Below, piece after piece: positions 26,679 through 63,572 of a stretch of 64,000 nt of DNA. The position numbers and the translations under genes were made by a program. The stretch lies in NCBI GenBank assembly GCA_977020255.1, contig CDROCS010002618.1, forward strand, positions 1 to 64,000, given 5' to 3'. The stretch's first letter is position 1. Every line of letters starts with the position of its first letter. Source of the DNA: Obrimoposthia wandeli (lineage: Eukaryota). Under the pieces are notes generated by a model that saw nothing but the letters and a program-made list of their open reading frames with translations, made no database searches and was not told the origin of the DNA.

Positions 26679-26765
26679 ATATGTATTTTTACAAAAATGA
26701 TTTTGAAGAATAAGAAAGATTAAGATAAGGAAAGGAGGAAGGAAGGAGATGGTGTTAAAGTCAGG

Positions 26766-27287
26766 TTAGTCAATCGTCAGGTCAATTGTCGGTTCCGGTC
26801 TATTTCGTTCCTCCAGGAACAGCATTACCCGCTCCAAGGGCAATGTTGAGAAAAACGGAACGTCGCCAAGGTAAAGCCCCAGTTGCTGGAAGATGTCCAG
26901 ATGTGGGCTTTGGCAGAATTGAGGTGCGCCGGAACTGTGTTGCTCATGGGTGCTGAGCCACACTCTCCAAGCATACTGCCACGAGTGGCGGTCACGGCTA
27001 GACCGCCACACCTCTTGTATGTTGCGCTGTGCATCGCGAAGGCGCATAGGACAAATGAATCATCGGCACCACTCGCCACTGATACAGCTGGTGGATGATC
27101 GTGTGCCCTTTGAACGTCCACGGCAGTGAACTGTCCAGTCTGCGAAGGGTGCTCAGCACATAGGGCAGGTGATATTGTTGGCCGGCCGAGCTTTGGCCCA
27201 CATATACAAACATGTATCGGGATGACGGCACCCGGCAGGGATTGCCGAGGAGTCCCGAATTCTGTTCAGGCACACCGAGTATATCAT
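26766..27287 (-). pseudogene. RING-H2 paralogue C with C-terminal SIM (PTIDLTID), disrupted copy
   Basis: Homologous to 59913..60440; split across ORFs 26998..27273, 26825..27121 and 26766..27047. Confidence 0.75.
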
Positions 27288-27606
27288 ACGCGTAAATGGT
27301 GTATCGGTTAAATCACTTTTTCTATTTGAAATTTATATGATTCTAAACCTTAATATTTTAACCTACCGAACTTTGTCTTTATTTGGGTACGTTTTCACAT
27401 TCTAAGTATATAAAAATTGTCTTTTGGGATTTTCAGTATAATAATTACAATTTAAAATAAACATCATACATAAAAATGGTAAAGGTCATTTACAGTTTCA
27501 TAAGATTATCCAATTCTAATTACAATTTATGTAGATATTTTACCGCGGTATGCGATACACAAATTTAGTTCATGATGTCACGTTTATGTCAAAAAGTTAC
27601 CTTCAA

Positions 27607-27911
27607 TTACTGCTGGCTGTTAGGCTGGCCTGTGCGTCGCTCCTCCACGCAGAACATGCACCAGCAGTCACAGATGTCCTTCCAGCAGTGCGCGATGAGT
27701 ACCACTGCTTGAAGACAATCTCGGTTGTATATGTAGTTTACCGAGAAGGATGCCCTGCACATCGGGCAGGTTGGGAGTCGAAGGGCTTGTTGCTGTTGAC
27801 AACTGGGATCCATGTCTCGAGGCACTGAACTTGGAATTTGTGCCCACAGTTGTTGAGTTTGGAGTAACAGTCCACGATGTCCTCGTAGCATATTGAACAT
27901 TCTCCAGACAT
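27607..27911 (-). pseudogene. RING-H2 paralogue B (one frameshift)
   Basis: MSGECSICYEDIVDCYSKLNNCGHKF..CLETW..[fs]PTCPMCRASF..HCWKDICDCWCMFC. Confidence 0.78.
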
Positions 27912-27969
27912 TGCTGTGAGAGGGGTGATGTTGAATTTGGGCTCGATTGAGGGTTGGTTGTTGTGTGAT

Positions 27970-28270
27970 GTTTACAAAAAGTGGTCGAATCTTGTCGTTC
28001 TGATGTACAGAAAAAACACCAACACTCTCTCAAGTTTTTCCAACAAAATTCCACCTGTACATCAACATCCTCTTGGTTGGGTTCTATTATGATGAACTTT
28101 GTGAATTGTCTTCTGCATACAGGGCAACGAGGGTATGTTGGATGGGGGAACTCTCCATAAGTTCTGATCCATTTTGATAAACATTGCTCGTGGTGTAGGT
28201 GGTTGCAGGTATTGGGTCTTGTTCTTCGTTCGGGTATATCTTCCAAACATATTGAACATTCCTCAGACAT
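27970..28270 (-). CDS. RING-H2 paralogue A (ORF track 27668..28270 reads through into paralogue B sequence)
   Basis: MSEECSICLEDIPERRTRPNTCNHLHHEQCLSKW..YPRCPVCRRQF..FCWKNLRECWCFFC: C3H2C3 spacing with the conserved Trp. Confidence 0.82.
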
Positions 28271-28398
28271 TCTAAATACATGATGACAATTAATTTCTAC
28301 ATGACTTTTACATAATTCTACACTTTTTGTACACTCACTTCTACGATATTTCTACATATTTTTACACACTAATTTATTCTACAACCTCCTCTGACTTG

Positions 28399-29035
28399 TC
28401 ATGTCTTGATGGGAGGCGGAGGTAAGGGTCGCAATTCCACTTCCTCCATCATGGGTGTGTTACAGCATCGTAGCTCTTTGCATCTTCGCCATATCCTTGG
28501 ATATATCTGACTGCCTTTCACGCACACGACTGTCAGTAGAAATACTGCAGTTGAAACTACAGCCATTACGATTAAAGCATTGACTGGTGTTATTCTGCTG
28601 TCTGAGGATTGATAATCGTACTTTCTTTTGATGTTTTTCGGTTTGGATGGCGTTTCATGTAGTGCTGTTCGGTTTCCGTGTATGATGTCCGATTTTTTAA
28701 TAAATCGCGGAATTGGATTTTTTGTTTTTTGTCTAAAGGGTATTATTATTCGAGATTTGAAATCCAGTGGAATCGTTCCCTTCACTCTTCTCCTCTCGAT
28801 AATTGTGCTTTAGTTTCTGGAATTGGGCTTTCTTCCTTTCACCTTTGCCTTCTTTGTGATTGTGTTTGGTTTCCCGGAATGGAATTTCCTGGGTCTGATC
28901 AGTTTTACGTCGTTTACCTGTGACCATAATTCTGTCAATAACTTTCCAGATGCGCTCATCGTTAGGCAATATTACTGATTTTGTTTGGATAACTTGGATA
29001 ATCCGTTTCCTTTTAGATATTGTTATTCTGGTTGT
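28399..29035 (-). pseudogene. Internally deleted 3' part of the type-I membrane protein (full copy at 46159..47607)
   Basis: Shares ILPNDERIWKVIDRIM, the TM segment VNALIVMAVVSTAVFLLTVVCV and tail RPLPPPPIKT. Confidence 0.75.
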
Positions 29036-39760: not shown

Positions 39761-40167
39761 ACATGTATAAGAATAAATGTTACTATTGATTACAAGATGC
39801 AAGATATTGATTATAGATGCTAGTATTTGCAATATAGATGCAGTACGTGACTGTCTTTGTTAGACACTCACACATATATATATACATGCTTGTATAAGAA
39901 TAAATGTAGTACTTGTTACTATTGATTACATAAAGATGCAAGTATTTGCAATATAGATGCAGTACGTGACTGTCTTTGTTAGATAGATATAGGAACGTTT
40001 AAACATGATTATCAAATTATATAATACTTTATTTTATAAGTAGATAATTTAATTTAAATAAATTATAAAACACACACACGATATGTATTTTGGTGAATTG
40101 GTGTTAATACTACCTTTAGATAAAAAGATATATAGTTTTAAAGTATGTTACTAAAAATAGAATCTTT

Positions 40168-40420
40168 TTTGACCTCACCGTGATCTTAAAGTACATTGTC
40201 CTCATGACGTCATGACCTTAACTTGACCTTAAAGTACATTGTCCTCATGACGTCATGACCTTAACTTGACCTTAACTTGCCTTGACCTCATGAGGTCATG
40301 ACCTACATCTTGTCCTCACCGTGACCTTAACTTGGCCTCATGAGGTCATGACCTACATCTTTACCTCACCGTGACCTCAACTTGACCTTAAAAATTTTGT
40401 CCTCAACTGGACCTGAGCTT
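40168..40420. promoter_or_regulatory. Array of TGACCT half-sites (IR0, DR5, 16-bp palindrome) and TGACGTCA motifs; second copy 55468-55750
   Basis: CATGACGTCATG 40203-40214; DR5 40213-40229; TGACCTCATGAGGTCATGACCT 40283-40304. Function inferred. Confidence 0.55.
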
Positions 40421-40519
40421 GTCCTCAGGGGGGGGCTTTGTTCCAGAAGTCACACTTCTACCTACTTTCTATATTACTTTTCACAAATAATATAATTAAT
40501 TTGAGAAATTCAGAAGTGT

Positions 40520-41000
40520 CAAGGAAGTGATTATTTAGTCAAAGGAGTTTTGGCAATTGTCATTTCATGATTCATAAGGTAATAGTACACATCTAGTGAA
40601 GGACTGATGGAAGAACGATGGTATTGGGTTAATATTACTTGTAAAATTCTGTCAATAATTAACTAATAAAAAATATTTTAGAAATATTTTTATGTGGAAT
40701 CTTTATTGATGTTTCTTAAAATCAATGTCTATGGACGTTTCTTAGATTTTTCCACATGTGTTCACAGATTATGAAATACTGATAGTAAAGAACATGCATT
40801 AATAAGTCGGGTCTAGTTAAATGACTGAGATAGGGATTTGAATCTCTCTAAACAGCAAGCTGAAATATTTGACCCACGTTTTCAACAGTGGGATCTATTA
40901 ATAACCAACACAATAATTGTATGGATTTGTAACAGATCGTAGCTAATACTGAATTGATTCATATAAATATAAAATCGTTTTTGTGTATAAGACTGTTCTG
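40520..41000 (+). mobile_element. Highly decayed Chapaev3-like (CMC) DNA transposase remnant; second copy about 55830-56330
   Basis: HALISRV*LND*DRDLNLSKQQAEIFDPRFQQWDLL (about 40795-40900) matches the LNDLVRDLxLSKxxAELLxSRLxxxNLL motif of a widespread invertebrate transposase family; the family name is from recall. Confidence 0.45.
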
Positions 41001-43119
41001 ATCATGTCGATATCGCAAAATTCAGATGAGATGGAATTTCTGTAATAAAGTGACACATTTTGAATATAATTAGGATATTTCATTAAAGGGAAAATATAAG
41101 GTCATTATTTATTTCGTATTGTGATGGGGAAGGAGGAGCAGGGCTTTCAAATCAAAGTTGGGATTTGTCTGTACGGGGCTGCATTTTGGTGACAATTTGG
41201 TTGCTTCATGTGGTGACACGATGGAGGAGAGGTGAATGTGTGAGTCGTCTTCTAAAGTATCAGTGGAGTGCAAATGTGTATGTCAATATGTCAGTGTTAT
41301 GAGCACTCGCGTGTGTGAAAGGCTCTACCATCTATGATGGTCATGTCTTTACCAACCCCTCCCAACACGACAACAACTGCATGATTGTGCTGCGCGTGCG
41401 CATGTGTTTACTTTATAAATTCGTCAATATGTTGATGGTGTAGTGCAGAGTCACTGTGCTGCATAGGGTCACCTGTAGATCTGATGGATCGACTTTGGCC
41501 TCAGCTGCGCTATTTTCGGAAATGCAATCGACAATTAGACATATTTGCAATTTCAGATATTCAGTATGTGCTAGGACCGCAAACCAGCCAGTCCAGCTCG
41601 CTCTGTCGACGTGAGAGAAACATGATCTACAGCGTGTTATTTCACGGGCGCGTGCCGCACATACACCGTGGCACCACACAGTTGCAGGCTGTCGTTTGGA
41701 ACACCGACAGAAGGAACTTCTCCCACTCTAAATAACCAAGCAATTTGAAATCCATGCAATTGAAACAATTCAAAATTATAAAACCGTTTCTTCAATTTTA
41801 AACTTTCACACTAAATAAGTAAATAATGTTAAAAGTATTTGGAATTTATTAAATAATTGTTTAACAAATCTAAAATTAAAAATATTGTAAGATAACAATT
41901 TTAAATACAACGAATTTTGATAGTAAAATAATTAATTTTAGAAAAGTTTATTTAGGTCTTCGGTCCAGAGTTATTTCACTTTTTATGGAAGCATCTGGTT
42001 CGTGAATTCCTGACTGCATAGGATTTGTGTGGAATAGGGTGGGCACTTAAAACACCTAAATATATTCTAATCAAATTGAAGTTAATAATATGTGATAGCA
42101 CATCGACTAAGATGGGTAATTAATTAATACACAATTAAAAATACAGAACTCTAACATTAGTTATGAGTAGAGATATGAGGGGGTTCTAGAACACTACCAC
42201 TACCATGATTTTACTTGCCTAAATTCTAATTCCAAATGTCTGCTTATTCTGTGAGTCTATGACTTCTAGAAATTACGTGCTTGCAGTTAAACGTAGGGCT
42301 AGTCTGAATCGTCTACGGTCAACCTCTTTCAACAATGCAATGTTAATCAAAACAAAAAATGTATTACAAAAAAATACATTGTTTGACTAGACTGGGTCAT
42401 AACACTTCTATGCCAGTTTATGATTTTTAGCGTTTTACAATGTTCCAAGATTAATAAAATTGTTGGGGTTTCTATATGAAACTCTGTGTTCTAATATAGA
42501 TCCTCTGACTTTGGAGGGCCCCAACGTGAGTTCTATAGAAGCAGGACTTAAGGATGGTTGTGGCCTACTTAATGTTGTGCTTGCCTGTCTCAATTCTTAT
42601 CTGAAGGTTTTTTGTTGTGTCGTAATCTGAAGAGTTTAGAACAATGCTTTCTAGTTGTAGGAAATCGTTTATTATTAAACACACTAGACTAACACGAATC
42701 AATACGTTTACGTACGTATTTCTAAAAAGTTACAGTAAAATTCCTAAGACTTCCGTCAGTCTCTACACAAGTGGGGATGATCCACGTATCGATTTTAAGT
42801 TTATGTTTGTTCTAGTTACTAGAGTCTTTACTCTAAAATTAGGGATTGATTTTAGAGAGCTGTTGCTCTAAAAATATGAGTAGTTTAGAGAGCTTGTGCT
42901 CTAAATTAGGGAATGAGCTTAGATAGATTTTAGGGTAGTTTACAGAGCTGGTGCTCTAAAATAGAAGTAGGTTACAGAGTTGTTGCTCTAAAAAAAGGGA
43001 TGGAGTTCGGTAAAACTGTTGCTCTTAAAAATATGGCAATGTAAAATAGGGTAAGATACTTGTACTAATTTTATAGAGTGTTCACTCTGAAAATATGGCA
43101 ATGTAAAAACTCAGTTCGA

Positions 43120-43720
43120 TTTATAGCTTAATTTCAATAATGACAATCACTTTAGCTTGATTTCAATAAAGATAATTACTTTGGCTTTATTTCAATAACG
43201 ACAATTACTTTAGCTTAATTTCAATAATGACAATAATGACAATCACTTGAGCTTAATTTCAATAACAACAATTATTTTAGCTTAATTTCAATAATGACAA
43301 TTACTTTAGCTTAATTTCAATAATAACAATTATTTTAGTTTAATTTCAATAATGACAATAATGACAATCACTTGAGCTTAATTTCAATAATGACAATAAT
43401 GACAATCACTTGAGCTGAATTTCAATAACAACAATCACTTTGGCTTAATTTCAATAACGACAATTACTTTAGCTTAATTTCAATAACGACATTTACTTTA
43501 GCATAATTTCAATAATAACAATTATTTTAGCTTAATTTCAATAATGACAATAATGACAATCACTTGAGCTTAATTTCAATAATGACTATAGCAACAATCA
43601 CTTTAGCTTAAATTCAATAACGACAATCACTTTAGCTTAATTTCAATAACGACAATTACTTGAGCTTAATTTCAATAATGACAATTACTTTAGCTTAATT
43701 TCAATAACAACAATTATTTT
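43120..43720. repeat. 30-bp AT-rich satellite (ttagcttaatttcaataacgacaattactt) with 39-bp variants; second, longer copy 58443-59160
   Basis: Visible array; length differs between the duplicated units. Confidence 0.95.
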
Positions 43721-44622
43721 CAGTTCCGCACGATTCTCACCGGTGGTTCTCCTTTGCGTGACAAGCTAGACTCCTTGTCTCAGATTCGGGTCGCGGACTG
43801 CTTGCTCTGATTCGTGGTCCTTTGGAGTACGGTACGGATCAGTTGCTCGCTCGGCGCGATATCCTTGTTTCTCCGAAAGCTTGTTTCCGGGAAAGGCAGC
43901 TGTCTCGATCTCTTTGAATTATTGGAGGGCTCTTTTTGATTTGCAATCAGCTGGAATTAGAAATTAGCTTCTCCTCCTGGCGATCGACTCTAATATTTTT
44001 GTCGACAATTATTCTGTGATTTTCTGATATTTACCTTGTGCCACTAATCCAAGCGCTTCTCACTTTTATACTCAATTTATTTTTCTCTAGTTCCTGCAAC
44101 GTTTTTAAGTACAGTATTTAATTTGAGAGTACTTACTTTTAGATAGCTGCGACAGTTATTCCGTGATTTTTCGATATTTACTTTGTGCCCACTAATCCTA
44201 GCGCTTCTCACTGTTACAATCAATTTCTTTTTCTCTAGTTCCTGTGAAGTTTTTTAAATAAAGCACTTAAATTGAGAGTACTTACTTTTAGATATCTGAT
44301 CGATCCGATATTTGCTGTTAATAGACTCGCTGTATTTCCTAATTCTGAAGTAGAGTTAATGGATTAAAGCACTTAATTTGCTTACCGTGCCCTTAGTCCC
44401 TAATTCTTGTCTGGACTCGAAGCGGCCCTTCTCTCTGCTTGTCGATAGTCTCTGAAAAGGAATTAAGTGCTTCTTCTTCCGTTTTCCAATTATTGGATTC
44501 TGTTTCAATTTTTCCTTACTTATATTACGAATATTCACTAACATGTATTATATACAACAAAATGAATGAGTGTTCAGAGAAGGAAAATAGCAGGGAAGGA
44601 TGGAATGTTAAAAGTTTTTAAA

Positions 44623-45152
44623 TTAATTGTCGATGGTTAGGTCTATTGTCACAGCTTGCCGGTTCCGCTCCTCCAGGAACAACATAACCCGCTCCAAGGG
44701 TAATGTTGGGAAGACCGGAGTGTCTCCTATGTACATCCCCTGCTGCTGGAAGATATCCAGGTGTGGGCTTTGGCGGATTAATGGCTCTCTGGGACGGCTT
44801 TGCTCGTGGGTGCTGAACCACAGCCTTTGCGCATACTGCCATGAGTGGTGATAAGACCGCCACCTCTCTCGGATGTAGAGCTGTGTGTTGTGACGGCGCG
44901 CAAGGCACACGGGGCATTGGCAGTGCTCACCACCAATGCAACTGGTGGGTGAGTGGGTGCCCTTGGGTCGTCCACGGCACTGAAGCGCCCACTCGGAAAA
45001 AGGGACGCGGTACATCGGACATGTGATGTGGCCGGGGGTCGAGCCTTGGCCCACAAGTAGAGGCAGGACTCGTGAAATTTGTGCCGGCACCCGGCAGGAG
45101 TTGCCGAGGTACCCCGGACACTGTTGAGGCACCCCGAGCATATCATCTGCAT
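44623..45152 (-). pseudogene. RING-H2 paralogue C with C-terminal SIM (one frameshift)
   Basis: MQMICSGCLNS..GCRHKFHESCLYLW..[fs]HITCPMYR..VTIDLTIDN. Confidence 0.78.
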
Positions 45153-45449
45153 AATGGTGTGTTGGTTAATTTACTTCTCTATTTGGAGTTTATTTTATTT
45201 TAACTTAGAAATTATCCTACCGAATTTTGTCATTTCTTTGGGCTTGTTTTTTATTAGGTATACAAATTGTCTTTTTGGAATTTTCAGTATAATAATTACA
45301 ATTTCAAATACGCAACATACATAAAAATGGTAATGTCATTTTACAGTTTCACAAGATTATACAATTATGATTACAACTATGGTAGCTAATTTATCACGGT
45401 ATGCGATACACAGGGTAGTTCATGATGTCATGTTTTAAGTCAGAAAGTT

Positions 45450-45715
45450 ACCTTCGGTTACTGCTGGCTGTTGGGCTGGCCTGTGCGTCACTCCTCTATG
45501 CAGAACGAACACGGAGATGTTCTTCCAGCAGTCAATGGATATCACTGAGGCTGTCCAAACACCGAGAAGGTTGCTCTGCGCATCGGGCAGTTTGGGTAGT
45601 CTAGGAGATTGTTGCTGTTGGTGACCACGTCAGGCATTCGACGTGGAACTGGTGGTCGCAGTTGTTGGGTTGGGTGTAGAGGTCCACTATGTTCTCGTAA
45701 TATTGAACATTCTTT
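45450..45715 (-). pseudogene. RING-H2 paralogue B riddled with micro-deletions
   Basis: Aligns to the intact 60776..61051 copy with many small gaps. Confidence 0.6.
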
Positions 45716-45784
45716 GCTGTGAGAGGGGTGATGTGAATTTGGGCATTGAGGGCTGGTGGTTGTGTGATGTTTACACAAAAGTGG

Positions 45785-46042
45785 TCAGAAATAACACCAA
45801 CACTCTCTGAAATTCTTCCAACAGAATACCACCTGTATATCTACATCCTCTTGGTTGGGTTCTATCATGATGAACTTTGTGAATTGTCTTCTGCATACAG
45901 GGCAACGAGGGTATGTTGGATGTACGAATTCTCCATAAGTTCTGATCCATTTTGATAAACATTCCTCGTGATGTAAGTGGTTGCAGGTTTCGGGTCTTCG
46001 TTCGGTTAAATCTTCCAAACATATTGGACATTCTTCGGACAT
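45785..46042 (-). CDS. RING-H2 paralogue A
   Basis: CPICLEDL..CNHLHHEECLSKW..CPVCRR..CWKNFRECWCYF. Confidence 0.8.
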   Translation of the reverse strand: MSEECPICLEDLTERRPETCNHLHHEECLSKWIRTYGEFVHPTYPRCPVCRRQFTKFIMIEPNQEDVDIQVVFCWKNFRECWCYF

Positions 46043-46158
46043 TCTAAATACATGATGACAATTAATTTCTACATGAGTTTTACATATTTCTACTTATTTG
46101 TATAATCGCTTCTACATATTTTTACACACTAATTTATACTACAACCTCCTCTGACCTG

Positions 46159-47607
46159 TCATGTCTTGATGGGAGGCGGAGGTAAGGGTCGCAATTCCAC
46201 TTTCTCCATCATAGGTGTGTTACAGCATCGTAGCTCTTTGCATTTCCGTCGTATTATTGGGCATATCTGACTGCCTTTCACGCACACGACTGTCAATAGA
46301 ACTGCTGTTGTTGACACTACTGCCATTCCAATTAAAGCATTGACTGCTGTTATTCCGCTGTCTGAGGATTGGTAATCGTATTTCATTTTGTTGTTTGTCG
46401 GTTTGAATGGCGTCTCCATTGATGTTGATCGGTTTCCGTGTATTATGTCCGATTTTCTAATAACTCGCGGATTTGGATATTTTGTTTTTGGTCTAACAGG
46501 TATTATTATTTGGGATTTGAGATGATATTTGGGATCTAGTGGAATCGTTCCCTTCACTCTTGTCCTCTCAATAATTGTGCTTTGATTTCTGGGCTCGAGC
46601 TCTTTTCCTTTCACCTCTGTCTTTGTTATGATTACTTTTGGCTTCTCGGAATGGCGTTTACTTCCGTTTACCTTTGCCTTCTTTTTGACTATGATTGGTT
46701 TTACGGAATGGCGTTTACTTCCTTTCACCTTTTCCTTTTTTATGACTATGATTGGTTTTCCGGGAATTATTTTCCTGGGTTTGATACTTAAACCGAGTCC
46801 ACGAAATCGACTTGTCTGGTATCTTAGAGTTATATAGAATATTTCATCTGTTATTACCATGATTATGGTAGTGGTCTCTTTAGCATTGCTGGGAATTCGG
46901 TTACATAGACATTCCGTATCAAAATGTGGTACTAACATGTGGGGTTTAATTTCGAATTTGATTCCACCATCTGGATTAGGACACGACACTGTTTCTTTGT
47001 CAGTTTCTAACAATCTGAAGAATAATCTAATGGAATTCCATACGGTTTTACGTCGTCTACCTGTGATCATAATCCTGTCGACAACTTTCCAGATGTGCTC
47101 GTCGTTAGGCAATATTAATGACTTTGTTCGGATAATTTGAATAATTTGTTTCCTTTTTGATATGGTTATTCGTAGGTGTAATACCTTTTCATGGTAGAAT
47201 AATATCAGTCGGTAGTAAAGTGTATGTTGGTCAATCTTTATTTTGATCTGGCGGATGACATACAATTTCTGATCGACATTTTCGGTAGCTGATGTTTGTA
47301 GGTGAATGTCTACAACGTGATTTGTTTTTAATAGAGGAATTTCTATGTATAACGCACGTATCGTATCTTGTCTCCATTTACTGATCATGATCTCATAACC
47401 AGCCTCGGTCGTGGTGATTTGCATAATCAGCATGATTCCTATGATAGTCCGGTTTCGAATTTCAGGAACTTCTCTGGGGTAACTCAAGTTACTCATGTAG
47501 TACGGTCTTTCCTCAATATGTTCATATATCGTTGGCTGATACTCTGGTGATGGTTCATTTAGGAATGCTGGTCTTGGTATAGTTGTGTTAAATTTTTGTA
47601 AATTCAT
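46159..47607 (-). CDS. 482-aa probable type-I membrane protein of unknown family
   Basis: Intact long ORF; hydrophobic RTIIGIMLIMQITTTEAG, beta-strand-like ectodomain, Lys-rich repeats, TM AVNALIGMAVVSTTAVLLTVVCV, Cys-rich tail ending RPLPPPPIKT. Confidence 0.75.
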   Translation of the reverse strand: MNLQKFNTTIPRPAFLNEPSPEYQPTIYEHIEERPYYMSNLSYPREVPEIRNRTIIGIMLIMQITTTEAGYEIMISKWRQDTIRALYIEIPLLKTNHVVDIHLQTSATENVDQKLYVIRQIKIKIDQHTLYYRLILFYHEKVLHLRITISKRKQIIQIIRTKSLILPNDEHIWKVVDRIMITGRRRKTVWNSIRLFFRLLETDKETVSCPNPDGGIKFEIKPHMLVPHFDTECLCNRIPSNAKETTTIIMVITDEIFYITLRYQTSRFRGLGLSIKPRKIIPGKPIIVIKKEKVKGSKRHSVKPIIVKKKAKVNGSKRHSEKPKVIITKTEVKGKELEPRNQSTIIERTRVKGTIPLDPKYHLKSQIIIPVRPKTKYPNPRVIRKSDIIHGNRSTSMETPFKPTNNKMKYDYQSSDSGITAVNALIGMAVVSTTAVLLTVVCVKGSQICPIIRRKCKELRCCNTPMMEKVELRPLPPPPIKT

Positions 47608-47679
47608 TTGACCTGCTTGTCTTGCGAGATCGTGACGTTTCTTTATGATCTCAACTCTATCTTATTTGGTTGTCTTTGT

Positions 47680-48203
47680 TTAGGAAATAAATAAATAAAT
47701 AACACAAGTGTGAAGATCTATATTAAACAAAATACATTCAATCAGATACTCATAATTTAAAGATTTAACACCAAGTATCATTATCTTTCCGCTCGCAACA
47801 ATGTTCACGCATAGGGGATTGTATTTGACGTATCGAGGTCCCGGGAAGATTTCTGGCTCGTAAACAGCTTCCGATCCCATACTCTTACTCATCTTGTTCA
47901 GGTTTATTGATGTTTCTAGATTGCTGCTGAGACTGATTGATTGGATTCTTTCGATTTTTATATCAAAAGGAAGACTGCTTTCATCCAGCACTGTTTTGCA
48001 ACCTATTATTCTGCATGTACCTAAATTATAATTATATATAAATGTAAAAATAAATTACCAAATTTGAAAATGATAATAGTGTAACCTTCACACTTGAGTC
48101 GATACTGATGAGGCTTCCAAGTCCGAAATGGTAAGTGTTGAATGTTACTTACAACCATTCCCTAGTAATTAATATTCACTAAATTGATATTGTGAAGTAG
48201 CAT
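47680..48203 (-). pseudogene. TBP: TBP-like gene, 2 exons (38-nt intron 48021-48058), in-frame TAG in exon 1
   Basis: Spliced: ..YRLKCEGYTIIIFKFG|TCRIIGCK..INLNKM..YEPEIFPGPRYVKYNPLCVNIVASGKIMILGVKS, giving both TBP repeats. Confidence 0.85.
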
Positions 48204-48284
48204 TTCTGATTATTATAAACTTATTTCTTCTATTTATACTATTTATACTATTTGAAAATCTATTTTTAGATTGCATGTCTTGGT

Positions 48285-48548
48285 TTAATTGCCTATGCTA
48301 TGAAATCTAATATTTCTTACTCGTCTAATGATAATTGTCTTGCAATATGGACATGTAATAAAACAATCTGAACATTTAATACACGTGTTTAAGTGACCGC
48401 ATGGTAAAAATGCCACGGAAATCGCATCGCTCATGCAAACAACACATTCGAGATTTGGTAAGAGGTACTCGAGATAATTTATCCGATGTTTTGGTTCAGA
48501 TTTTATTTCTAAATATCTTAAATCCGTTATAAACTCATATAGTAGGTG
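48285..48548 (-). pseudogene. IAP/MDM2-type C3HC4 RING, 5' end cut by the about 100-bp repeat (absent from ORF track); second copy 63645-63908
   Basis: ..LLPNLECVVCMSDAISVAFLPCGHLNTCIKCSDCFITCPYCKTIIIRRVRNIRFHSIGN*. Confidence 0.85.
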
Positions 48549-48703
48549 GATGTGTCCGGTCTAATCCACACCCCCCTCCCCCTTGTCCTATAAAACCGTG
48601 CAAGTGTGTGGAGTGAAATTTTGTGTAGGTGTGTGGAGTGAAATTTCGTGTATGTGTGGAGCAAAAACAAAATACGAGACAAAATTATTTTTCAAAATAT
48701 TTA

Positions 48704-49110
48704 TTAAACATAAAACAACATATTGGCTTCACTCAAAGTCCAGAGAGGCTGCATTTTCCCGTCATCAGCAAAATATCCATTCAGACGTATTGAGATATTC
48801 CATAGTTCTTCATCTAGAATTGGAGCAATCAAATATCCTAGATCATCTTTAAAATCCAGACTGGGATCAGTTTCAAGCTCGAAACAATTTCCTTCATATA
48901 CATAATCAGGAATGTAAAATCCACAAATATTTTTCAATTGATCAAAATCAGTTGTTGTTAAAATTTCGATGAGATATTTTTTCTCCACTTTTGATATTTT
49001 CACAGGATTCATAACTTGTATAATTTGATGCCTCTTTAATATATTACATAGTTTTCATTTAGAAATTCTTTCTGGATAATAAAAATTTGCTACACAACTC
49101 TTATCCATTC
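48704..49110 (-). CDS. Unknown protein, paralogue 2 of a tandem pair
   Basis: NPVKI..DFDQLKN..IPDY..NCF..FKDDLG..WNISIRLNGY..QPLW aligns with the neighbouring ORF. Confidence 0.6.
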
Positions 49111-49149
49111 TAAAATAAGGAAACTGATTAAAAGCAATGTTTATAAAAA

Positions 49150-49680
49150 AATACATATAAGAAACAAATAAGATACAAATAAAACTGATTATTAAATGAA
49201 AGAAACATAGTAAAACCGATTACAATTTATTACACGCAAAAAGATAAAACATAGAAATATGAACACGTTCAATTTTCCACATAGGCAACTTTGTTCCCAT
49301 TTTATCGTTCTTGTAACCATAAAGTCGAATTGTTAGAGTCCATTGCTTCTTTTTCGGAAATGCATCAATATCAACATATCTTCCATAGTCATCTAGAAAT
49401 GCTTCATCGGCTCCTCGGATATAAAATTCGTTCTTATTGAAAGTAAAATTTGGAACTGCCTTTTCTATTTTCTGTTTAAGATATTGAAAATCTGGTTTTG
49501 GATATTTGAGAGATAGTAGCTGAACTTTCTTCTTTCAATTGTCACAGGATTTACTAAAGCAATCAGTTGAGCCTTCTTCAAGAATCTGACTTTGTATTTG
49601 AAATATTGTTTCACTTCTTCATACATATCCTTATCCGATTCTTCAAACATTTCTTCGTCATCGCTTAATACCCGCCATTG
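49150..49680 (-). pseudogene. Unknown protein, paralogue 1 of a tandem pair (frameshift near 49525)
   Basis: NPVTI..[fs]..DFQYLKQ..VPNF..NEF..FLDDYG..WTLTIRLYGY..LPMWKIERV. Confidence 0.6.
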
Positions 49681-49807
49681 GAGAACAAATCACAGTAAAT
49701 GCATTCATATCAAAGACAATTATCAACAATGGACGATGGTGATTTGTCCATCGTTGATAATTGTCTTTGATATGAATGCATTTACTGTGATTTGTCCTCC
49801 AATGGCG
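49673..49807. repeat. Long hairpin: 62-bp arms with 2 mismatches and an 11-nt loop
   Basis: Arms 49673-49734 and 49746-49807, checked base by base. Confidence 0.95.
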
Positions 49808-50030
49808 CATTCTTTTATACTAATTTATAACAAAGACATGAATCTCATTGGTTAATATAACTAAAGCATTGAATTTGATTGGACTAAATCTATATTAAAA
49901 ATCAAAATTGATTGGAAGAAATATATCATCCAATTATAATAGGTTTGCAAGATAATTACAAGAAACGTGCAATAAAAAAGCAGGTTCAGACATATATAAA
50001 GAAGATTTTACAGAATACAATTTCAGTCTA

Positions 50031-50533
50031 ATGAAACTCGTAAATATAAATTATAAAGGTAGAACAGAAGATGATGTTTCGTACTTACCATTCAATGAAT
50101 GGAAGCCGAGACAATATATGTAGAAAAAATTTGACAATTTCACAGTTGTTATTTTTCCTACAGGTTAGTTTTTTATTTTATTTTCATATTGAATTCTTTA
50201 GGAAATTGTCGTGTTATGGGATGTAAAATACCAATGCTTGGGTTCAATTTACCATTTGGAATTCAAATCACTGCAATACAATCAATCAAGATTTCGGCTA
50301 ATCTCGGGAAACAGATAAATCTTTTTAAAACTGCAGAGAAAATGAAAGAAGAATGCATGTTTGAACCAGAAATTTTTCCTGCTCTCAGTTATTTGAAGTT
50401 TAAACCGCTATGTGTAAATATATTTTCCAGTGGTAAAGTTATGATATTGGGATTGAAAAATTTTGATTATCTAAACATTGTTGATTTGATTTTAGAAAAT
50501 ATATCTTATTACATCTTGTTATCTTTTCTATAA
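50031..50533 (+). pseudogene. TBP: Second, divergent TBP-like gene, 2 exons (38-nt intron 50164-50201), in-frame TAG at 50121
   Basis: MKLVNINYKG..WKPRQYM*KKFDNFTVVIFPTG|NCRVMGCK..FEPEIFPALSYLKFKPLCVNIFSSGKVMILGLK; TATATAAAG about 35 nt upstream of the ATG. Confidence 0.85.
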
Positions 50534-50561
50534 ACAAACCCGTTTAAAGTTATTGTTTTGA

Positions 50562-50745
50562 ATGAATAATACTATAAATAGAGACAATGAAATGGATCGG
50601 CTTGCCGATGAAATTTTTTCTGGAAAAATTAGGGGTAAAGAAATTTTATCAGAATTAAAAAATAATGATATAACAAGAGATAACATTGAAATATTGGTTA
50701 GATCACACGTTATTCGAGAATTTAGAAATCGTACACAAATAAATA
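50562..50745 (+). CDS. Small unknown ORF running into the ATPase remnant
   Basis: ORF 50562..50798; its last residues (KIYWHHG) belong to the ATPase alignment. Confidence 0.35.
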
Positions 50746-51260
50746 AAATTTATTGGCATCATGGTGGAGGAGGGGAAAGCGGGTTAAACAAAACATAAGT
50801 TTGCAAGTTGAAGGGAATACAATTTATTGAAGGATTTGATGCAAATTTGTGTGAAAGATTGAAAAAAGAAGATGTAATAATAATTGATGATTTGTAACAG
50901 GAAGCTAACAAGGAATCGGACTTTAATAATTTATTTACGAAGATTGCAAGACATCGTGAAGTAACAGTTATATTTATCACTCAAAATCATTTTCACCAAT
51001 GAGGTCACCATAGAACAAGAAATTTTCATGTACATTACTTAGTTTTATTTAAAAATCCTAGAGATCAAACAGTTGTTGATTTCGTGGCCAGACATGCGTT
51101 TCCCCAAAATAAGAACTTTCTAGTTGATTCATTTCATGATGCTGTTAAACAAGCACATGGGTATATATTTATTGACTTTGCAAAAGCTTACCCAGGTGAT
51201 TTACGTGTTTTAACAGACATATTTAATTCTAAGGGAGTAACTGTTTATAAACAAATATAG
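50745..51260 (+). pseudogene. Maverick DNA-packaging ATPase (FtsK-like), Walker B and C-terminal part
   Basis: IIIDDL*QEA..LFTKIARHREVTVIFITQN..RNFHVHYLVLFKNPRD..AHGYIFID; Walker A not found; internal stops. Confidence 0.82.
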
Positions 51261-51548
51261 AACAATTATAAAAGATAAATTTACAAGTGGTGCGTTAAAC
51301 TACCATCCAGAAATCTGCAGATCATAGTTAACAGAACCTTAGCTCGTCAGTTAGAGGTCACCATAGAACAAGAAATTTTCATGTAATTACTTTTTTATGA
51401 GATTTCCATAAAATAAGAACAGTTGAATTTCATGATGCTGTTAGCACATGGATCTTTGCAAAGCTTTGATTTACGTGTTTTTATTTAATTCTCTGTTTAT
51501 AAACAAATATAGAACAATTATAAAAGAAGGCTTCGAAGAACTTTTTAA

Positions 51549-51859
51549 ATGAAGAAAATTACCCTATTTTAAAGCTTTGGTTAAAGCCTCTTCTCATAAG
51601 AGAATGATTATTCTTAAAACATTTCCATCCTTTGTTGTAGATGATTTATTGGAAGTTTTGTATAATATAGTTTTGGGTCGAGTAAAAGTTGGAAAACGGA
51701 AAAATGTATTAAAGAAATATAGAAAAACTCTTCTAGATATTGCTAATGTAAAAATGGAAACGAAATATTATTCTTAAACAGAATGGTGGTTTCATAGGGG
51801 CTGTTATTCCAGTGGTTGCTTCAATTATCAGTAGTATATTAGCTGCTACACGATCATAA
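51549..51859 (+). pseudogene. Small basic Maverick core-like protein ending in a QxGGF hydrophobic motif
   Basis: ..ILKALVKASSHKR..LLEVLYNIVLG..LKKYRK..ILKQNGGFIGAVIPVVASIISSIL*, with frameshifts. Confidence 0.65.
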
Positions 51860-51949
51860 ACAATTATTTCTAAAATCAGCTAAAGATATGGGTGCTAACT
51901 CTTCTTTACCTAAATTTATTTTTTTTTCTATTCAAATTGTTGTAATGTA

Positions 51950-52800
51950 GAAGATATGATTCAATCCAAAAGATCCAATTGGCTACACAGGAGTTTCAAA
52001 ATTAGCAAAAAGAACAAAACAGAATTACAAGAAAACGCAGAAATGGCTGAGCGACCAGTTAGCCTACAGTCTGAACAAGCCGATGAGAAGAAGGTTTCCA
52101 ACTAGAGCTTACAAAACCAGCGGTCCTATTAATTTATGGCAAATGGATTTGATGGAGATGATCCCATATTCTTCCATTTTTATGGGATATCGATATATTT
52201 TAACATGTATTGATGTATTTAGCAGGTTTGCTCGTGCAATTCCAGTTAATGCAAAGTCTTCAATAGCTATGCTTGAAGCCATTAAAGAAATATTAAAAGA
52301 GGACATTCCACAAAATGTGCAAACTGATTTAGGAAAAGAATTTTATAATAAGCAAGTTCAATCATTATTTAAACAAAATAATATAAATCTCTACTTTGTG
52401 TTTTCACAATACAAAGCAGCAGTAGTAGAAAGATTTAATCGTACTCTAAGAGATCGAATAAAAAAGTATTTCACAAAAGAAGGAAATAAAAAAATGGGTC
52501 CAAGTTTTACCTAAAATAATACCTGCATATAATCACTCTGAACATAGAGGTCTCAAGGGAATGAGACCTGGTGATGTTACTAATAAAAACTCTATGGATA
52601 TTTGGATGACAGGAATAAAAAAGAAAATATTAAAAAAGCTAAATATAAGAAAAACGAATATGTTCGAATTTCGAAAATGAGCTCTACTCCATTTATTAAA
52701 AACTTTGATCAGAATTGGAGCGATGAAATATTTTGTATAAGTAAAATTGATCAAAAGAGTAATCCAATAATGTATACTTTTAAAGATGCTAACAATAATA
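51950..52800 (+). mobile_element. Maverick rve (DDE) integrase, frameshifted and truncated at the PolB junction
   Basis: NPKDPIGYTG..WLSDQLAYSLNKPMRRRF..LWQMDL..CIDVFSRF..QTDLGKEFYN..KAAVVERFNRTL; C-terminal YVRIS..NWSDEIF. Confidence 0.92.
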
Positions 52801-54758
52801 TAGTGTATAGTGTATTGTCATCAGGATTTAGTGAACATAATGTCAGATGTTTGCTGTAAGAGAGCTCGGATCGGAACCCATGCAAACATCTATGACACCA
52901 CTTACATCTTATCCTAACCGGTAAGGCTCCATTATCTAAATTTAGAAGACGATCTAAACTGGGAATTGCAGCATAATGGAATTTTTTATTCTGTTCGAGC
53001 AAAATTAAGTTGACCTGAGTGCCCTCATTTTTGCTCCTTTAAATTACATCTACAAAAGGACTTTTAAAAATTCCTTCATCTGTTACATTAACTGGGATAT
53101 CAGTATTATATTTGAATACATTAATACTCAAGTTATTAAGATGTTCAAATCTTGATATCGCAGTTAATTTAACAGGAATATCTATTCCATGATACTGCAA
53201 TTCATTTAAAAAAGGGGTATATTTACTGACACGCTCTCTGTGCTCAGTAATTACATCCCTTTTGAGGATGGCCAACACGCTATACAGAAAGCAAAGGTTA
53301 TCACTGTTTTGTATGTTAACAATGGAACGTGAAAGTTGAAGAGATCTAGGTGAAGGAATGTATGAATTCCTCGAAAGATACATCATGTCAGTGAACTTTG
53401 TAAGAACAAAGCTAACATTGTGAATTCTAACTAGAGTCTATCCACTACTTAACTCGCTATAATTAGCAATTTTTTCATCTAGTTTTCCTCCAATTTCAGT
53501 TACAAAATTATCATAGAAAACAGTTGCTTTATGTGAAATTACCCAAGTTTTAGTCTCCTCATTGACATTTTTAAACTGCACTGTTGCGTAAAATTGAACC
53601 TTAGCCTGTCCTAATTTAGTCACTTCTGATTTTAAAAGATTTTCAATATTTGAATCTACACCTACGTATAATAAAATTTCATTTCCTAATGGCACCTTAA
53701 CTATAACATATTTATTATTTAGGTGATACTCTATAGTAGCTCTACGTTTTTTTGGTGGGACTTTATTAAGAAATTGGCCCCGCCTCTTTCTTCCTACCGT
53801 CGCTGACAAACCTACCCCTAATGGAACGAGAAGACAACTATTTATATTAATCAAATTTATTTATATTAATTATCGATGCTGCTGATGTTGAGGCAATCGC
53901 AGCTGATGTGGAAGAGGTTGCTTTAATAGGTGCTGCCGATGTTGATGCAATCGCAGCTGGTGTGGAAGTTGATGCTGAGGCAACTTATATTGGTGCCGCA
54001 GATGATGTTGTGATAGCACTTGTAAAGGCAGGAGCCCCTCGATCATCAGTAGCTGATGTCATTGAAGTTCTTGAAGCGACTGTTGTGGACGCCGATGATG
54101 CTGCTGAAATAAATATATTAAAAAATAAATATGTTTTTTTTAATTATTACCTCTAAGGCTTGCAATTATCGATGTAGGCACTCACGATGGGGGAGGCATA
54201 GCTGTCGTAGCGGATGACGGCTGTATCAAGGTATTCCTGAATAAATAATAAAAATAAAATATATATACAATTTTAAAAAATAATCAGAAAAATAATAATA
54301 AAAAAGTACCTAATGAAGGCAATCCAACTGTAACTGGTTGGAAGTCCTCTTCATTGATGGAATCCATCCAGCTGTCGTCCGTTAACTCGACGAAATCGGA
54401 ATCCTCGGTGGTCTCCAACCAGCTGTTGTCGCTCCACTGCTCCATCTCAAAATCTTCTTGGGAGATGTCGTTCATCCACTCATTGTTAGTCATTTGAGTG
54501 GGTGAGGCAGAATCAGGAGCCGGGAGACCAATTGCAGTAAACGGGTTGAACGACTGCAACTGGAATTGGAGCAGGAGCGGCCTGTGAATCGCGCACCAAT
54601 TGCATGACAGCCCTCTTCTTGTTGTTGACCGTGAAACAGGATAGGTGATCTCTATATTCATCGAAGAAGTCTCAAAACTCCTTCTCCTCCATTGTTTTGC
54701 AGAATGGGCAGACGAAGAATTGAAGCTCATGAGACTTTGTCCAATAGTAGGCGGACAT
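52800..54758 (-). mobile_element. polB: Maverick PolB N-terminal half with zinc finger, acidic repeats and two introns (54237-54309, 54104-54150)
   Basis: ATG 54758: MSAYYWTKSHELQFFVCPFC..DHLSC..VRDSQ, W-x3-I-x3-DF repeats, S/T/A linker, then GRKRRGQFLNK..SELSSG..CFLYSVLA..CKWCHRC; several lesions. Confidence 0.88.
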
Positions 54759-57700
54759 TATCTCCATACAGGACTTTCCTCCATGCGGAGCCGAACCACC
54801 ACAATATGCTGGAAACAGGATACATTAGGCCGGGTCGAAACCTATCTTTTTTTCAGTTTTTCCAATTCCACACTATGCATGGGGTGCAGAAGGATTATGC
54901 AGACATCATACATAAAATTTAATGATATGCGACCCCCCTACCCCTAGCATACATCCATTTTATAAAGAAAATCAATTTTCTAATTTGTTTAAATAATATT
55001 TTATTTATTTTTATTTGGTTTTCTAGTTTTTTAGACATTTTGTTTATTAAAAATATATTAAAAGGTAAATTATATTTATTTTTCATTAATTTCATCTATT
55101 TTCAGATTAACTAAATTATATAAGATCATAAATACTACAGAAATATAATTATGGCAACAAGAAGCAAAACTCAGAATTCAACATGCTTGTATAAGAATAA
55201 ATGTAGTACTTGTTACTATTGATTACATAAAGATGCAAGTATTTGCAATATAGATGCAGTACGTGACTGTCTTTGTTAGATAGATATAGGAACGTTTAAA
55301 CATGATTATCAAATTATATAATACTTTATTTTATAAGTAGATAATTTAATTTAAATAAATTATAAAACACACACACGATATGTATTTTGGTGAATTGGTG
55401 TTAATACTACCTTTAGATAAAAAGATATATAGTTTTAAAGTATGTTACTAAAAATAGAATCTTTTTTTGACCTCACCGTGATCTTAAAGTACATTGTCCT
55501 CATGACGTCATGACCTTAACTTGACCTCAAAGTACATTGTCTTCATGACGTCATGACCTTAACTTGACCTTAACTTGCCTTGACCTCATGAGGTCATGAC
55601 CTACATCTTGTCCTCACCGTGACCTTAACTTGGCCTCATGAGGTCATGACCTATATTTTTCCCATGACCTCATGAGGTCATGACCTACATCTTTACCTCA
55701 CCGTGACCTCAACTTGACCTTAAAAATTTTGTCCTCAACTGGACCTGAGCTTGTCCTCAGGGGGGGGCTTTGTTCCAGAAGTCACACTTCTACCTACTTT
55801 CTATATTACTTTTCACAAATAATATAATTAATTTGAGAAATTCAGAAGTGTCAAGGAAGTGATTATTTAGTCAAAGGAGTTTTGGCAATTGTCATTTCAT
55901 GATTCATAAGGTAATAGTACACATCTAGTGAAGGACTGATGGAAGAACGATGGTATTGGGTTAATATTACTTGTAAAATTCTGTCAATAATTAACTAATA
56001 AAAAATATTTTAGAAATATTTTTATGTGGAATCTTTTTTGATGTTTCTTAAAATCAATGTCTATGGACGTTTCTTAGATTTTTCCACATGTGTTCACAGA
56101 TTATGAAATACTGATAGTAAAGAACATGCATTAATAAGTCGGGTCCAGTTAAATGACTGAGATAGGGATTTGAATCTCTCTAAACAGCAAGCTGAAATAT
56201 TTGACCCACGTTTTCAACAGTGGGATCTATTAATAACCAACACAATAATTGTATGGATTTGTAACAGATCGTAGCTAATACTGAATTGATTCATATAAAT
56301 ATAAAATCGTTTTTGTGTATAAGACTGTTCTGATCATGTCGATATCGCAAAATTCAGATGAGATGGAATTTCTGTAATAAAGTGACACATTTTGAATATA
56401 ATTAGGATATTTCATTAAAGGGAAAATATAAGGTCATTATTTATTTCGTATTGTGATGGGGAAGGAGGAGCAGGGCTTTCAAATCAAAGTTGGGATTTGT
56501 CTGTACGGGGCTGCATTTTGGTGACAATTTGGTTGCTTCATGTGGTGACACGATGGAGGAGAGGTGAATGTGTGAGTCGTCTTCTAAAGTATCAGTGGAG
56601 TGCAAATGTGTATGTCAATATGTCAGTGTTATGAGCACTCGCGTGTGTGAAAGGCTCTACCATCTATGATGGTCATGTCTTTACCAACCCCCTCCCAACA
56701 CGACAACAACTGCATGATTGTGCTGCGCGTGCGCATGTGTTTACTTTATAAATTCGTCAATATGTTGATGGTGTAGTGCAGAGTCACTGTGCTGCATAGG
56801 GTCACCTGTAGATCTGATGGATCGACTTTGGCCTCAGCTGCGCTATTTTCGGAAATGCAATCGACAATTAGACATATTTGCAATTTCAGATATTCAGTAT
56901 GTGCTAGGACCGCAAACCAGCCAGTCCAGCTCGCTCTGTCGACGTGAGAGAAACATGATCTACAGCGTGTTATTTCACGGGCGCGTGCCGCACATACACC
57001 GTGGCACCACACAGTTGCAGGCTGTCGTTTGGAACACCGACAGAAGGAACTTCTCCCACTCTAAATAACCAAGCAATTTGAAATCCATGCAATTGAAACA
57101 ATTCAAAATTATAAAACCGTTTCTTCAATTTTAAACTTTCACACTAAATAAGTAAATAATGTTAAAAGTATTTGGAATTTATTAAATAATTGTTTAACAA
57201 ATCTAAAATTAAAAATATTGTAAGATAACAATTTTAAATACAACGAATTTTGATAGTAAAATAATTAATTTTAGAAAAGTTTATTTAGGTCTTCGGTCCA
57301 GAGTTATTTCAATTTTTATGGAAGCATCTGGTTCGTGAATTCCTGACTGCATAGGACTTGTGTGGAATAGGGTGGGCACTTAAAACACCTAAATATATTC
57401 TAATCAAATTGAAGTTAATAATATGTCGACTAAGATGGGTAATTAATTAATACACAATTAAAAATACAGAACTCTAACATTAGTTATGAGTAGAGATATG
57501 AGGGGGTTCTAGAACACTACCACTACCATGATTTTACTTGCCTAAATTCTAATTCCAAATGTCTGCTTATTCTGTGAGTCTATGACTTCTAGAAATTACG
57601 TGCTTGCAGTTAAACGTAGGGCTAGTCTGAATCGTCTACGGTCAACCTCTTTCAACAATGCAATGTTAATCAAAACAAAAAATGTATTACAAAAAAATAC

Positions 57701-63049: not shown

Positions 63050-63572
63050 TTAGGAAATAAATAAATAAATAACACAAGTGTGAAGATCTATATTAAACAA
63101 AATACATTCAATCAGATACTCATAATTTAAAGATTTAACACCAAGTATCATTATCTTTCCGCTCGCAACAATGTTCACGCATAGGGGATTGTATTTGACG
63201 TATCGAGGCCCTGGAAGATTTCTGGCTCGTAAACAGCTTCCGATCCCATACTCTTACTCATCTTGTTCAGGTTTATTGATGTTTCTAGATTGCTGCTGAG
63301 ACTGATTGATTGGATTCTTTCGATTTTTATATCAAAAGGAAGACTGCTTTCATCCAGCACTGTTTTGCAACCCATTATTCTGCATGTACCTAAATTATAA
63401 TTATATATAAATGTAAAAATAAATTACCAAATTTGAAAATGATAATAGTGTAACCTTCACACTTGAGTCGATACTGATAAGGCTTCCAAGTCCGAAATGG
63501 TAAGTGTTGAATGTTACTTACAACCATTCCCTTGTAATTAATATTCACTAAATTGATATTGTGAAGTAGCAT
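63050..63572 (-). pseudogene. TBP: TBP-like gene copy 2 (intron 63390-63427; exon 1 intact; frameshift after YEPEIF)
   Basis: ORFs 63390..63572 and 63175..63375 splice as FKFG|TCRIMGCK. Confidence 0.82.

Follow-up and report, generated by a model that had tools for sequence, protein, structure and literature searches.

A Maverick-borne family of reduced TBPs and its candidate cognate promoter

The window, i.e. the whole 64-kb stretch of DNA analysed, carries two TBP-like genes: TBP(+) runs on the + strand from an ATG at 50031 to a stop at 50533, and TBP(-) on the - strand from an ATG at 48203 to a stop at 47680. These coordinates, given in an earlier note on the same DNA, proved exact, as did its description of the introns (both 38 nt, GT-AG, phase 1 and within the same Gly codon). 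The parts of the two genes, here called TBP-A and TBP-B, and a further copy of the latter are as follows:

50031..50163, + strand: TBP-A exon 1, of a family A Maverick, with a stop codon at 50121 in the window copy
50164..50201, + strand: TBP-A intron, 38 nt, GT-AG, phase 1; splicing predicted from sequence
50202..50533, + strand: TBP-A exon 2, open; Pfam PF00352, E 1.5e-11
48059..48203, - strand: TBP-B exon 1, of a family B derivative, with a stop codon at 48164 in the window copy
48021..48058, - strand: TBP-B intron, 38 nt, GT-AG, phase 1, in the same Gly as in TBP-A; splicing predicted
47680..48020, - strand: TBP-B exon 2, open; Pfam PF00352, E 1.9e-9
63050..63572, - strand: a further TBP-B, lying in the adjacent 15.3-kb tandem unit; its intron is at 63390-63427

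The TBP-A intron interrupts the Gly that follows strand S4 of repeat 1, and exon 2 comprises the entire C-terminal repeat, including the EPEIF stirrup. Against the Pfam TBP model the second exons score 44.4 bits (TBP(+)) and 37.7 bits (TBP(-)), with a cut-off of 22.9, and the two proteins are 46-47% identical. As was pointed out previously, the ORF list, which is restricted to ATG starts, shows exon 2 alone for TBP(+). Both window copies are dead. The lesions of the TBP-B copies do differ, as had been seen: the 48-kb TBP(-) has its stop in exon 1, and the 63-kb copy has a frameshift in exon 2. The segment LVNINYKG, formerly ascribed to the window TBP(-), is not read there, where the stop codon at 48164 is found.

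The identical 38-nt intron highlighted earlier is present in both window copies, but this length is not fixed: it ranges across families from 35 to 41 nt, i.e. 35-41 nt in family A (30 copies), 37-40 nt in family B (28 of 30 loci readable), and 37, 39 and 40 nt in three further families. While intron length varies, the exon lengths of A and B copies stay mostly in phase. Since six relatives of approximately 50% identity (five of them full length) have no intron and are open across the junction, the position of the intron is fixed independently of splice signals. Host TBP introns are 47-48 nt long and lie at other positions. The signs in the sequence fit a spliceosomal intron, whose removal is predicted. 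The match at 38 nt is a by-product of short introns, and the appearance of twin paralogues a by-product of nesting. Four sequencing runs represent a single sample with flat coverage across intergenic DNA, and have no bearing on splicing.

TBP(+) is the gene of a family A Maverick and TBP(-) that of a family B derivative. Instead of paralogues, as first proposed, they are the equivalent gene of two Maverick families, joined when a family A element inserted into the IAP gene of a family B derivative; the composite was then copied in tandem as a 15.3-kb unit. The neighbouring features are:

44623..47607, - strand: cargo block of the family B derivative, a 482-aa ORF and two RING ORFs
48288..48540, - strand: 3' part (RING) of the family B IAP gene; Pfam RING, 95% to the family B IAP
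48541..48600, + strand: left terminus of the family A element, with an AGTAGG start common to the termini of other elements
48707..49534, - strand: two family A ORFs divergent from TBP-A, with the promoter motif described below at 49138-49145
50730..51275, + strand: family A A32-type packaging ATPase, 5' part absent from the window copy
51939..52799, + strand: family A rve integrase; Pfam rve, E 1.6e-11
52805..54776, - strand: pieces of the protein-primed DNA polymerase B gene of family A; introns predicted

The insertion truncated the family B IAP gene to its 3' part (the full-length gene also has a BIR), and the cargo block abuts TBP-B through a deletion near 47662. Read from 48541, the order of two divergent ORFs, TBP(+), ATPase, integrase and polymerase fragments is that of a family A element without its capsid block; a deletion has fused the integrase to the polymerase fragments, and the capsid and protease genes are gone. 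One of the two divergent ORFs is related to the ORF adjacent to TBP in other families, and the family C equivalent of the ATPase matches Pfam Pox_A32. The window composite is rearranged, and the left A terminus is the only terminus identified in it.

Elsewhere in the genome the IAP-TBP(-) pair is followed by the remaining genes of family B, for a phosphatase, an ATPase, an integrase, a capsid protein, a protease and a polymerase, which are approximately 70% identical in DNA sequence to those of family A. Pfam matches for the protein-primed polymerase, integrase, packaging ATPase and protease were obtained with family C genes, and their equivalents were mapped in A and B. A conserved ORF of 403-427 aa at the place expected for the capsid gene, without sequence match in Pfam or the PDB, is labelled here as the putative double jelly-roll major capsid protein. 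Two family B elements have terminal inverted repeats and a 6-bp target duplication, and family C has terminal inverted repeats without a matching target duplication. Exact 22-base patterns at the splice acceptor, whose counts are lower bounds on gene copies and not numbers of whole elements, gave at least 6,946 genome matches for family A and at least 1,067 for family B.

Among 30 loci of each family, IAP was found in 28 and the phosphatase in 19 of the B loci, and the ATPase in 28 of the A loci; at least three further families (C, D and E) have their own TBP near the ATPase. The earlier note had allowed that such genes might lie mostly outside Mavericks. Maverick genes stand beside TBP in 80/80 genome loci (within 1.5 kb in 30/30 A, 30/30 B and 20/20 element loci picked by Pfam) and in 38/51 metagenomic loci. 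When loci were chosen by ATPase, blind to TBP, the latter was present within 1.5 kb in 29/30, mostly of one family. For the metagenomic loci the neighbour counted was any element-type gene, and a core gene was present in 23/51; on contigs of at least 3 kb these values were 20/21 and 16/21, respectively. In a profile search, 424 proteins reached an E of 1e-10 or better, and the best 150 of these 424 belong mostly to the element TBP family. No relative was found in the viral contigs scanned with the TBP, capsid and ATPase alignments.

Structural prediction was performed with a relative, P0002 (53% identical to TBP(+) exon 2), and not with the window proteins themselves. The model (pLDDT 96.9) contains all ten strands and both C-lobe helices; N-lobe helix H2 is missing and H1 is reduced to a turn. 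All 146 residues align with human TBP 164-336 (Z 13.7, rmsd 2.6); TBP structures score Z 11-13.7 and the next fold Z 6.3, and the Atlas clusters recovered for P0002 are TBP only. The N-lobe linker measures about 20 aa in the element TBP versus 32 in host TBP. The element TBP is therefore predicted, from this model, to be a TBP saddle without both N-lobe helices. Of the two-repeat core described previously, the TBP fold and the whole C-terminal repeat are borne out, while the first repeat is reduced. This loss of N-lobe helices is graded, because a distant Maverick TBP keeps both.

The proposal that the DNA-intercalating Phe residues and the TFIIB surface be modelled gave a divided result with the P0002 model and 66 relatives, with residue positions (of the Phe and the DNA-face sites) whose numbering and register we partly assume. 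Three of the four DNA-kinking Phe are present in 66/66 relatives, and the first is replaced by Pro in 62/64; the fourth is Val in the window TBP(-) copy and Phe in most family B copies read. Each of the two TFIIB-binding stirrup Glu is kept in 65/66 relatives, and both occur in both window proteins. At positions that face DNA in TBP the family has its own invariant or nearly invariant Arg, Met, Asn and Arg. According to passages of PMC7221094, the two C-lobe Glu bind TFIIB, and the basic patch of N-lobe H2 binds TFIIA, TAF1, Mot1/BTAF1, Brf1 and Brf2.

In a tree of 78 rows, chosen with the family profile and with giant-virus TBPs left out, 63 element-type rows are split from 15 cellular rows (host, other eukaryotic and archaea-like) with support 100/99, and all five host TBP rows fall among the latter. 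As judged from these alignments, the tree excludes a recent host capture of the element TBP and leaves its origin unplaced. Synonymous sites are saturated between A and B (pS 0.87, pN 0.33), so that the dN/dS comparison suggested for the two genes themselves gave no usable value; six unsaturated pairs gave dN/dS of 0.14-0.28, five more pairs being saturated and three 'famF' rows having been dropped on account of a frameshifted copy. Element TBPs are under purifying selection between families. The genes do not nest with host TBPs and their dN/dS is not near 1. That the family is old, borne by elements and remote from the TBP of the host, as put forward in the earlier note, is upheld by the separate clade, by this selection and by the Maverick context.

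Within families, 20 A and 20 B copies were taken in contig order, and a set picked by protein likeness was set aside. Both exons are open in 15 of these 40 copies (7/20 A and 8/20 B). Private changes in exon 2 of the A copies number 37 non-synonymous to 9 synonymous on 228:57 sites, i.e. they are neutral; shared changes lean synonymous (non-synonymous to synonymous 5:7 in A and 0:11 in B). This is the pattern of a gene that is selected in the replicating element and decays after insertion.

The upstream regions of element genes fall into two classes, exemplified in the window by the following sites:

49993..50001, + strand: canonical TATA TATATAAAG upstream of TBP-A, a predicted early promoter
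48230..48247, - strand: tandem pair of canonical TATA boxes TATAAATAG ahead of TBP-B
50529..50536, + strand: YATAAACA motif overlapping the TBP-A stop, before the next ORF (motif scan)
51246..51253, + strand: YATAAACA motif in the end of the ATPase gene, before the next ORF (motif scan); duplicated at 51498-51505
51855..51862, + strand: YATAAACA motif before the integrase (motif scan)

The window A element has five sense-oriented motif sites in all. The motif was first picked by eye; the scan covered 10-100 nt before the ATG with near-duplicates removed, and its rows are related elements and not independent events. ATAAAC(A/G) is present in the sense orientation in 77 of 95 upstream regions of element genes other than TBP, and in antisense in one; ATAAACA is the top 7-mer (69/95). 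By gene, it precedes the ATPase in 20/22, the capsid gene in 11/12, an exonuclease-like ORF in 11/12 and the integrase in 9/12 (shuffle means of about 1 or less), as well as a zinc ORF ahead of the polymerase in 2/3. The motif precedes the ATG by 28-47 nt at 40 of 48 sites, and the base ahead of it is T or C in 47/48. It occurs in genome and metagenome rows alike, and is found together with TBP in L160, a distant element. Its position within the coding sequence upstream means that the motif is kept at a cost.

The TBP gene itself differs. After two of 42 upstream rows had been dropped as wrong starts, the motif was found before TBP in 2/40, which is chance (shuffle 1.3), and canonical TATA in 23/40 (shuffle mean 5.1, maximum 11); the other 17, including family C, are without canonical TATA by the patterns used. 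In sampled copies, canonical TATA lies upstream of TBP-A in 16/20 and of TBP-B in 19/20. The promoter layout thus has two classes, canonical TATA before TBP and ATAAAC(A/G) before other genes. This arrangement, read from sequence, lends support to the earlier suggestion that Pol II may be redirected to element promoters. The TATA at 49993 had been proposed as a target of the element TBP; being canonical, it is more likely read by host TBP, as the promoter for the element TBP gene rather than its target.

The motif differs from TATAWAWR at position 7. The N-lobe Phe pair of TBP works at step 7/8; if it does so here, the changed end of the motif would face the changed lobe of the protein. Kinks at steps 1/2 and 7/8 are described in passages of PMC10005294.

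We conclude that Maverick elements carry a genuine family of mini-TBPs, for which there is a candidate cognate promoter. TBP(+) and TBP(-) each represent the only TBP-like gene of the respective Maverick family, and we consider it reasonably probable that the protein is a late-gene switch, the predicted reader of ATAAAC(A/G). The wider reading, towards which the evidence inclines us only slightly, is that at least two deep Maverick lineages use an early/late switch in which one 150-aa helix-stripped TBP reads a TATAAACA code of its own and draws on the TFIIB and Pol II of the host. According to this model, host TBP and Pol II would transcribe the element TBP gene from its canonical TATA, and the host spliceosome would excise the short intron. 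The mini-TBP would then bind YATAAACA through its altered N-lobe face and recruit host TFIIB and Pol II via the kept acidic stirrup, while the absence of helix H2 would allow escape from TAF1, Mot1/BTAF1, TFIIA and Brf1. The term 'late' is a label used by analogy, the motif also preceding the integrase and the zinc ORF, and the suggested link between protein and motif is one of co-occurrence, in a comparison that includes no TBP-less Maverick. Counted against the late-switch reading is the title of PDB entry 1qn3, according to which host TBP can bind C at position 7 of TATA.

Several other explanations have to be considered. A different factor, be it another protein of the element or machinery supplied by a helper virus (cf. 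the late promoters of virophages), might read the motif, the mini-TBP being part of a complex or a factor for early genes. Passages of PMC4893493 speak in favour of this: the TBP-like proteins of herpesviruses depend on five partners, and BcRF1 by itself does not discriminate between TATA and TATT in its binding in vitro. In addition, families A to E and 15/51 metagenomic loci have, next to TBP, an ORF for which no family was found by Pfam or Atlas. We nevertheless regard such a factor as unlikely: the motif is TATA-shaped, one-sided and at TATA distance, neither a TFIIB-like nor a (transcription) polymerase gene could be recognised when complete elements were read, and the introns point to nuclear host Pol II and not to a cytoplasmic helper factory. 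Somewhat less likely still is that host TBP, or one of the several divergent TBP paralogues of the host, reads the motif as a weak TATA and that the element protein is a decoy, sequestering TFIIB or blocking host TATA boxes. TBP accepts C at position 7 via Hoogsteen pairing (in passages of PMC4402545), and TATAAACG retained 27% activity in a plant assay (in those of PMC10005294). A decoy explains less than a late switch, since it accounts neither for the near-invariant C7, with canonical variants before motif-bearing genes at background (4, 5 and 0 of 95), nor for the avoidance of the motif by the TBP gene alone, nor for invariant DNA-face residues unlike those of host TBP.

The Forkhead consensus is RYAAAYA, which ATAAACA fits, and the motif could be a site of this type that is bound by a host factor and has nothing to do with the TBP gene. 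This is very improbable in view of its orientation (77 sense versus 1 antisense), its position fixed near -35, the T or C that precedes it in 47/48 sites, and the rarity of the Forkhead-type variant GTAAAC(A/G), found in 2/95 regions. Finally, the genes might be decayed captures of host TBP without present function, as the two broken window copies and the neutral private changes of family A would allow. This idea has become scarcely credible and is already largely refuted by the separate clade, the dN/dS of 0.14-0.28 between families, the synonymous bias of shared changes (5:7 and 0:11) and an intron position unlike those of host TBP.

The late-switch reading has its closest working analogue in the herpesviral factors BcRF1 (EBV), ORF24 (KSHV) and UL87 (HCMV) with their TATT box. 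Passages of PMC4893493 describe a viral TBP-like protein with a non-canonical TATA variant before structural genes, and canonical TATA before earlier genes. However, the herpesviral factors are large, have a Pol II CTD-binding domain and act in a six-protein complex (PMC7498053), in contrast to a bare 150-aa core with the motif TATAAAC, and the P0002 model matches them with weak structural scores (E 0.007-0.02). The TBPs of Nucleocytoviricota likewise represent a virus-borne TBP fold (best Foldseek E 9e-8) with the N-lobe regulatory signature lost. According to passages of PMC7221094 they are mostly diverged at the TFIIB-binding positions and often accompanied by a viral TFIIB, whereas the Maverick TBP keeps both Glu, no TFIIB gene was seen, and identity is 10-21%. 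With cellular TBP (PF00352; PDB 1cdw/7egb) the element protein shares the saddle over the whole P0002 model, both L5.1 Phe and both C-lobe stirrup Glu, the roles of which are given in passages of PMC7221094. It differs from it in being approximately 27 residues shorter, in the lost first Phe and the lack of an N-terminal extension and, in the element subclade, of N-lobe H1 and H2, in its intron position, and in its separate clade.

The elements themselves resemble described Mavericks/Polintons/adintoviruses (PMC8502044) in their protein-primed DNA polymerase B, rve integrase, A32 ATPase, C5 protease, terminal inverted repeats, 6-bp target duplication and IAP cargo. In the available text of that paper (Starrett et al. 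2021), 'TBP' appears only as a label, in the legend of Fig. 5, which concerns non-animal MELD viruses and elements related to them; that text describes neither a promoter motif nor an intron, and one supplement gave no match. For coral polintoviruses, VLTF3 is noted as a transcription factor in the available text of PMC11131425; neither TBP nor TATA was found in that text or in those of PMC11161782 and 10.64898/2026.06.19.733378, and the main text of PMC7221094, as available, does not mention Polintons or Mavericks. No description of a Maverick TBP family or of the motif was found in the literature searched, most subscription papers, Repbase, figures and supplements lying outside this search.

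These observations bear on how Mavericks express their capsid and packaging genes and on their need for a helper virus. With an element TBP and a matching motif of 7-8 bases, the question is testable with one protein and one oligonucleotide: if the late-switch reading is true, the protein would prefer TATAAACA over TATAAAAG relative to host TBP. Late-gene expression would then be minimal, helper-free and convergent with that of herpesviruses, and the pair would constitute a natural TBP-promoter system orthogonal to the host. In the element TBP the regulatory surface of the N-lobe has been lost in its entirety by natural deletion, and its relatives form a graded series; thousands of copies in the genome carry the gene and the motif.

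The common intron can serve as a marker with which to follow how introns are gained and lost in a DNA virus-like element. It is present in families A, B, C and E and in the metagenomic locus L153, and absent from family D and the other metagenomic loci; within family A, no intron-less copy was found, versus at least 6,946 with the intron. On the best tree the intron-bearing rows require 4 changes. Grouping them as one clade (p-AU 0.34) or A and B as sisters (p-AU 0.078) is not rejected in either case, and the history of the intron may have involved one gain with losses or parallel gains, both of which fit the sequences.

The phase-1 intron predicted at one Gly codon of the element-borne TBP genes (38 nt in the copies of the window) recurs in a third Maverick family, represented in the host genome by the following element:

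Contig C2618, 88710-101897 (loci L033-L034): complete family C Maverick of 13.2 kb, with terminal repeats

The family C element's own TBP has a predicted intron of 37 nt at the same Gly as in families A and B. Among 51 metagenomic loci, a predicted intron at this Gly (40 nt) was found in a single case, a Maverick of locus L153 (340-440). The TBP gene of family D is intronless (L100, L101, L103 and others), and the intron site there reads ACAG/GT, i.e. a proto-splice site. Further GT-AG introns are predicted in the polymerase genes of families A (window 53860-54330, reverse strand) and C (one intron, L033-L034). In families B and C, the zinc ORF also has a predicted intron, placed immediately behind its ATG; the loci concerned include L033-L034 and L076-L078.

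TBP is adjoined, across most families and at 15 of the 51 metagenomic loci, by an ORF that matches no known family, and whose product is possibly a partner of TBP:

Window 48707-49534: TBP-adjacent ORF of 110-160 aa
Locus L033, 5639-6025: TBP-adjacent ORF of 110-160 aa

The upstream ORF of family A contains an inverted repeat (62 nt, spacer of 11 nt; window 49673-49807), which differs between copies. In families A-D, the integrase is preceded by a short ORF (e.g. at window 51885) that extends into the integrase start, begins with Met-Gly and ends with Ser-Cys-Cys-Asn; its product may be a lipid-modified peptide.

The family A element of the window forms part of a larger repeated structure, and two family B elements were identified elsewhere in the host genome:

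Window 39884-55180: 15.3-kb tandem unit, composed of a family B derivative and a deleted family A element
Window 44623-47607, reverse strand: cargo block, a 482-aa ORF and two RING ORFs
Contigs C1312 (L067-L069) and C1346 (L070-L072): ~16-17 kb elements of family B

Three tandem copies of the composite (95-98% identity) are present on the window's contig, out to 85 kb, and two on contig C5251. Both family B elements have a 6-bp target duplication, a capsid block and terminal inverted repeats of 4.6-5 kb, each enclosing IAP and TBP; no polymerase ORF was seen in the C1312 element. Further TBP-B pairs in inverted orientation are spaced by ~8 kb.

Family B also carries a dual-specificity phosphatase gene (L068, 1162-1896; Pfam DSPc), downstream of which the cargo block lies in 5 of 20 loci. 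This block, whose 482-aa ORF ends in a hydrophobic stretch, lacks the YATAAACA motif and has at least 40 matches in the genome, and a relative (77-80%) is located at window 26720-28890. A metagenomic Maverick carries a cargo ORF (L139, 225-719, reverse strand) which we take to be ubiquitin-conjugating-enzyme-like.

The host's own TBP genes, on contigs C238, C968, C60 and C1092, comprise a head-to-head pair on C238 (L087, L094) with introns of 47-48 nt, a divergent gene on C968, and two TRF-like genes that are nearly identical and intronless. The Maverick load of this genome is very high, with several families, nested, in nearly every 20-30 kb stretch examined.
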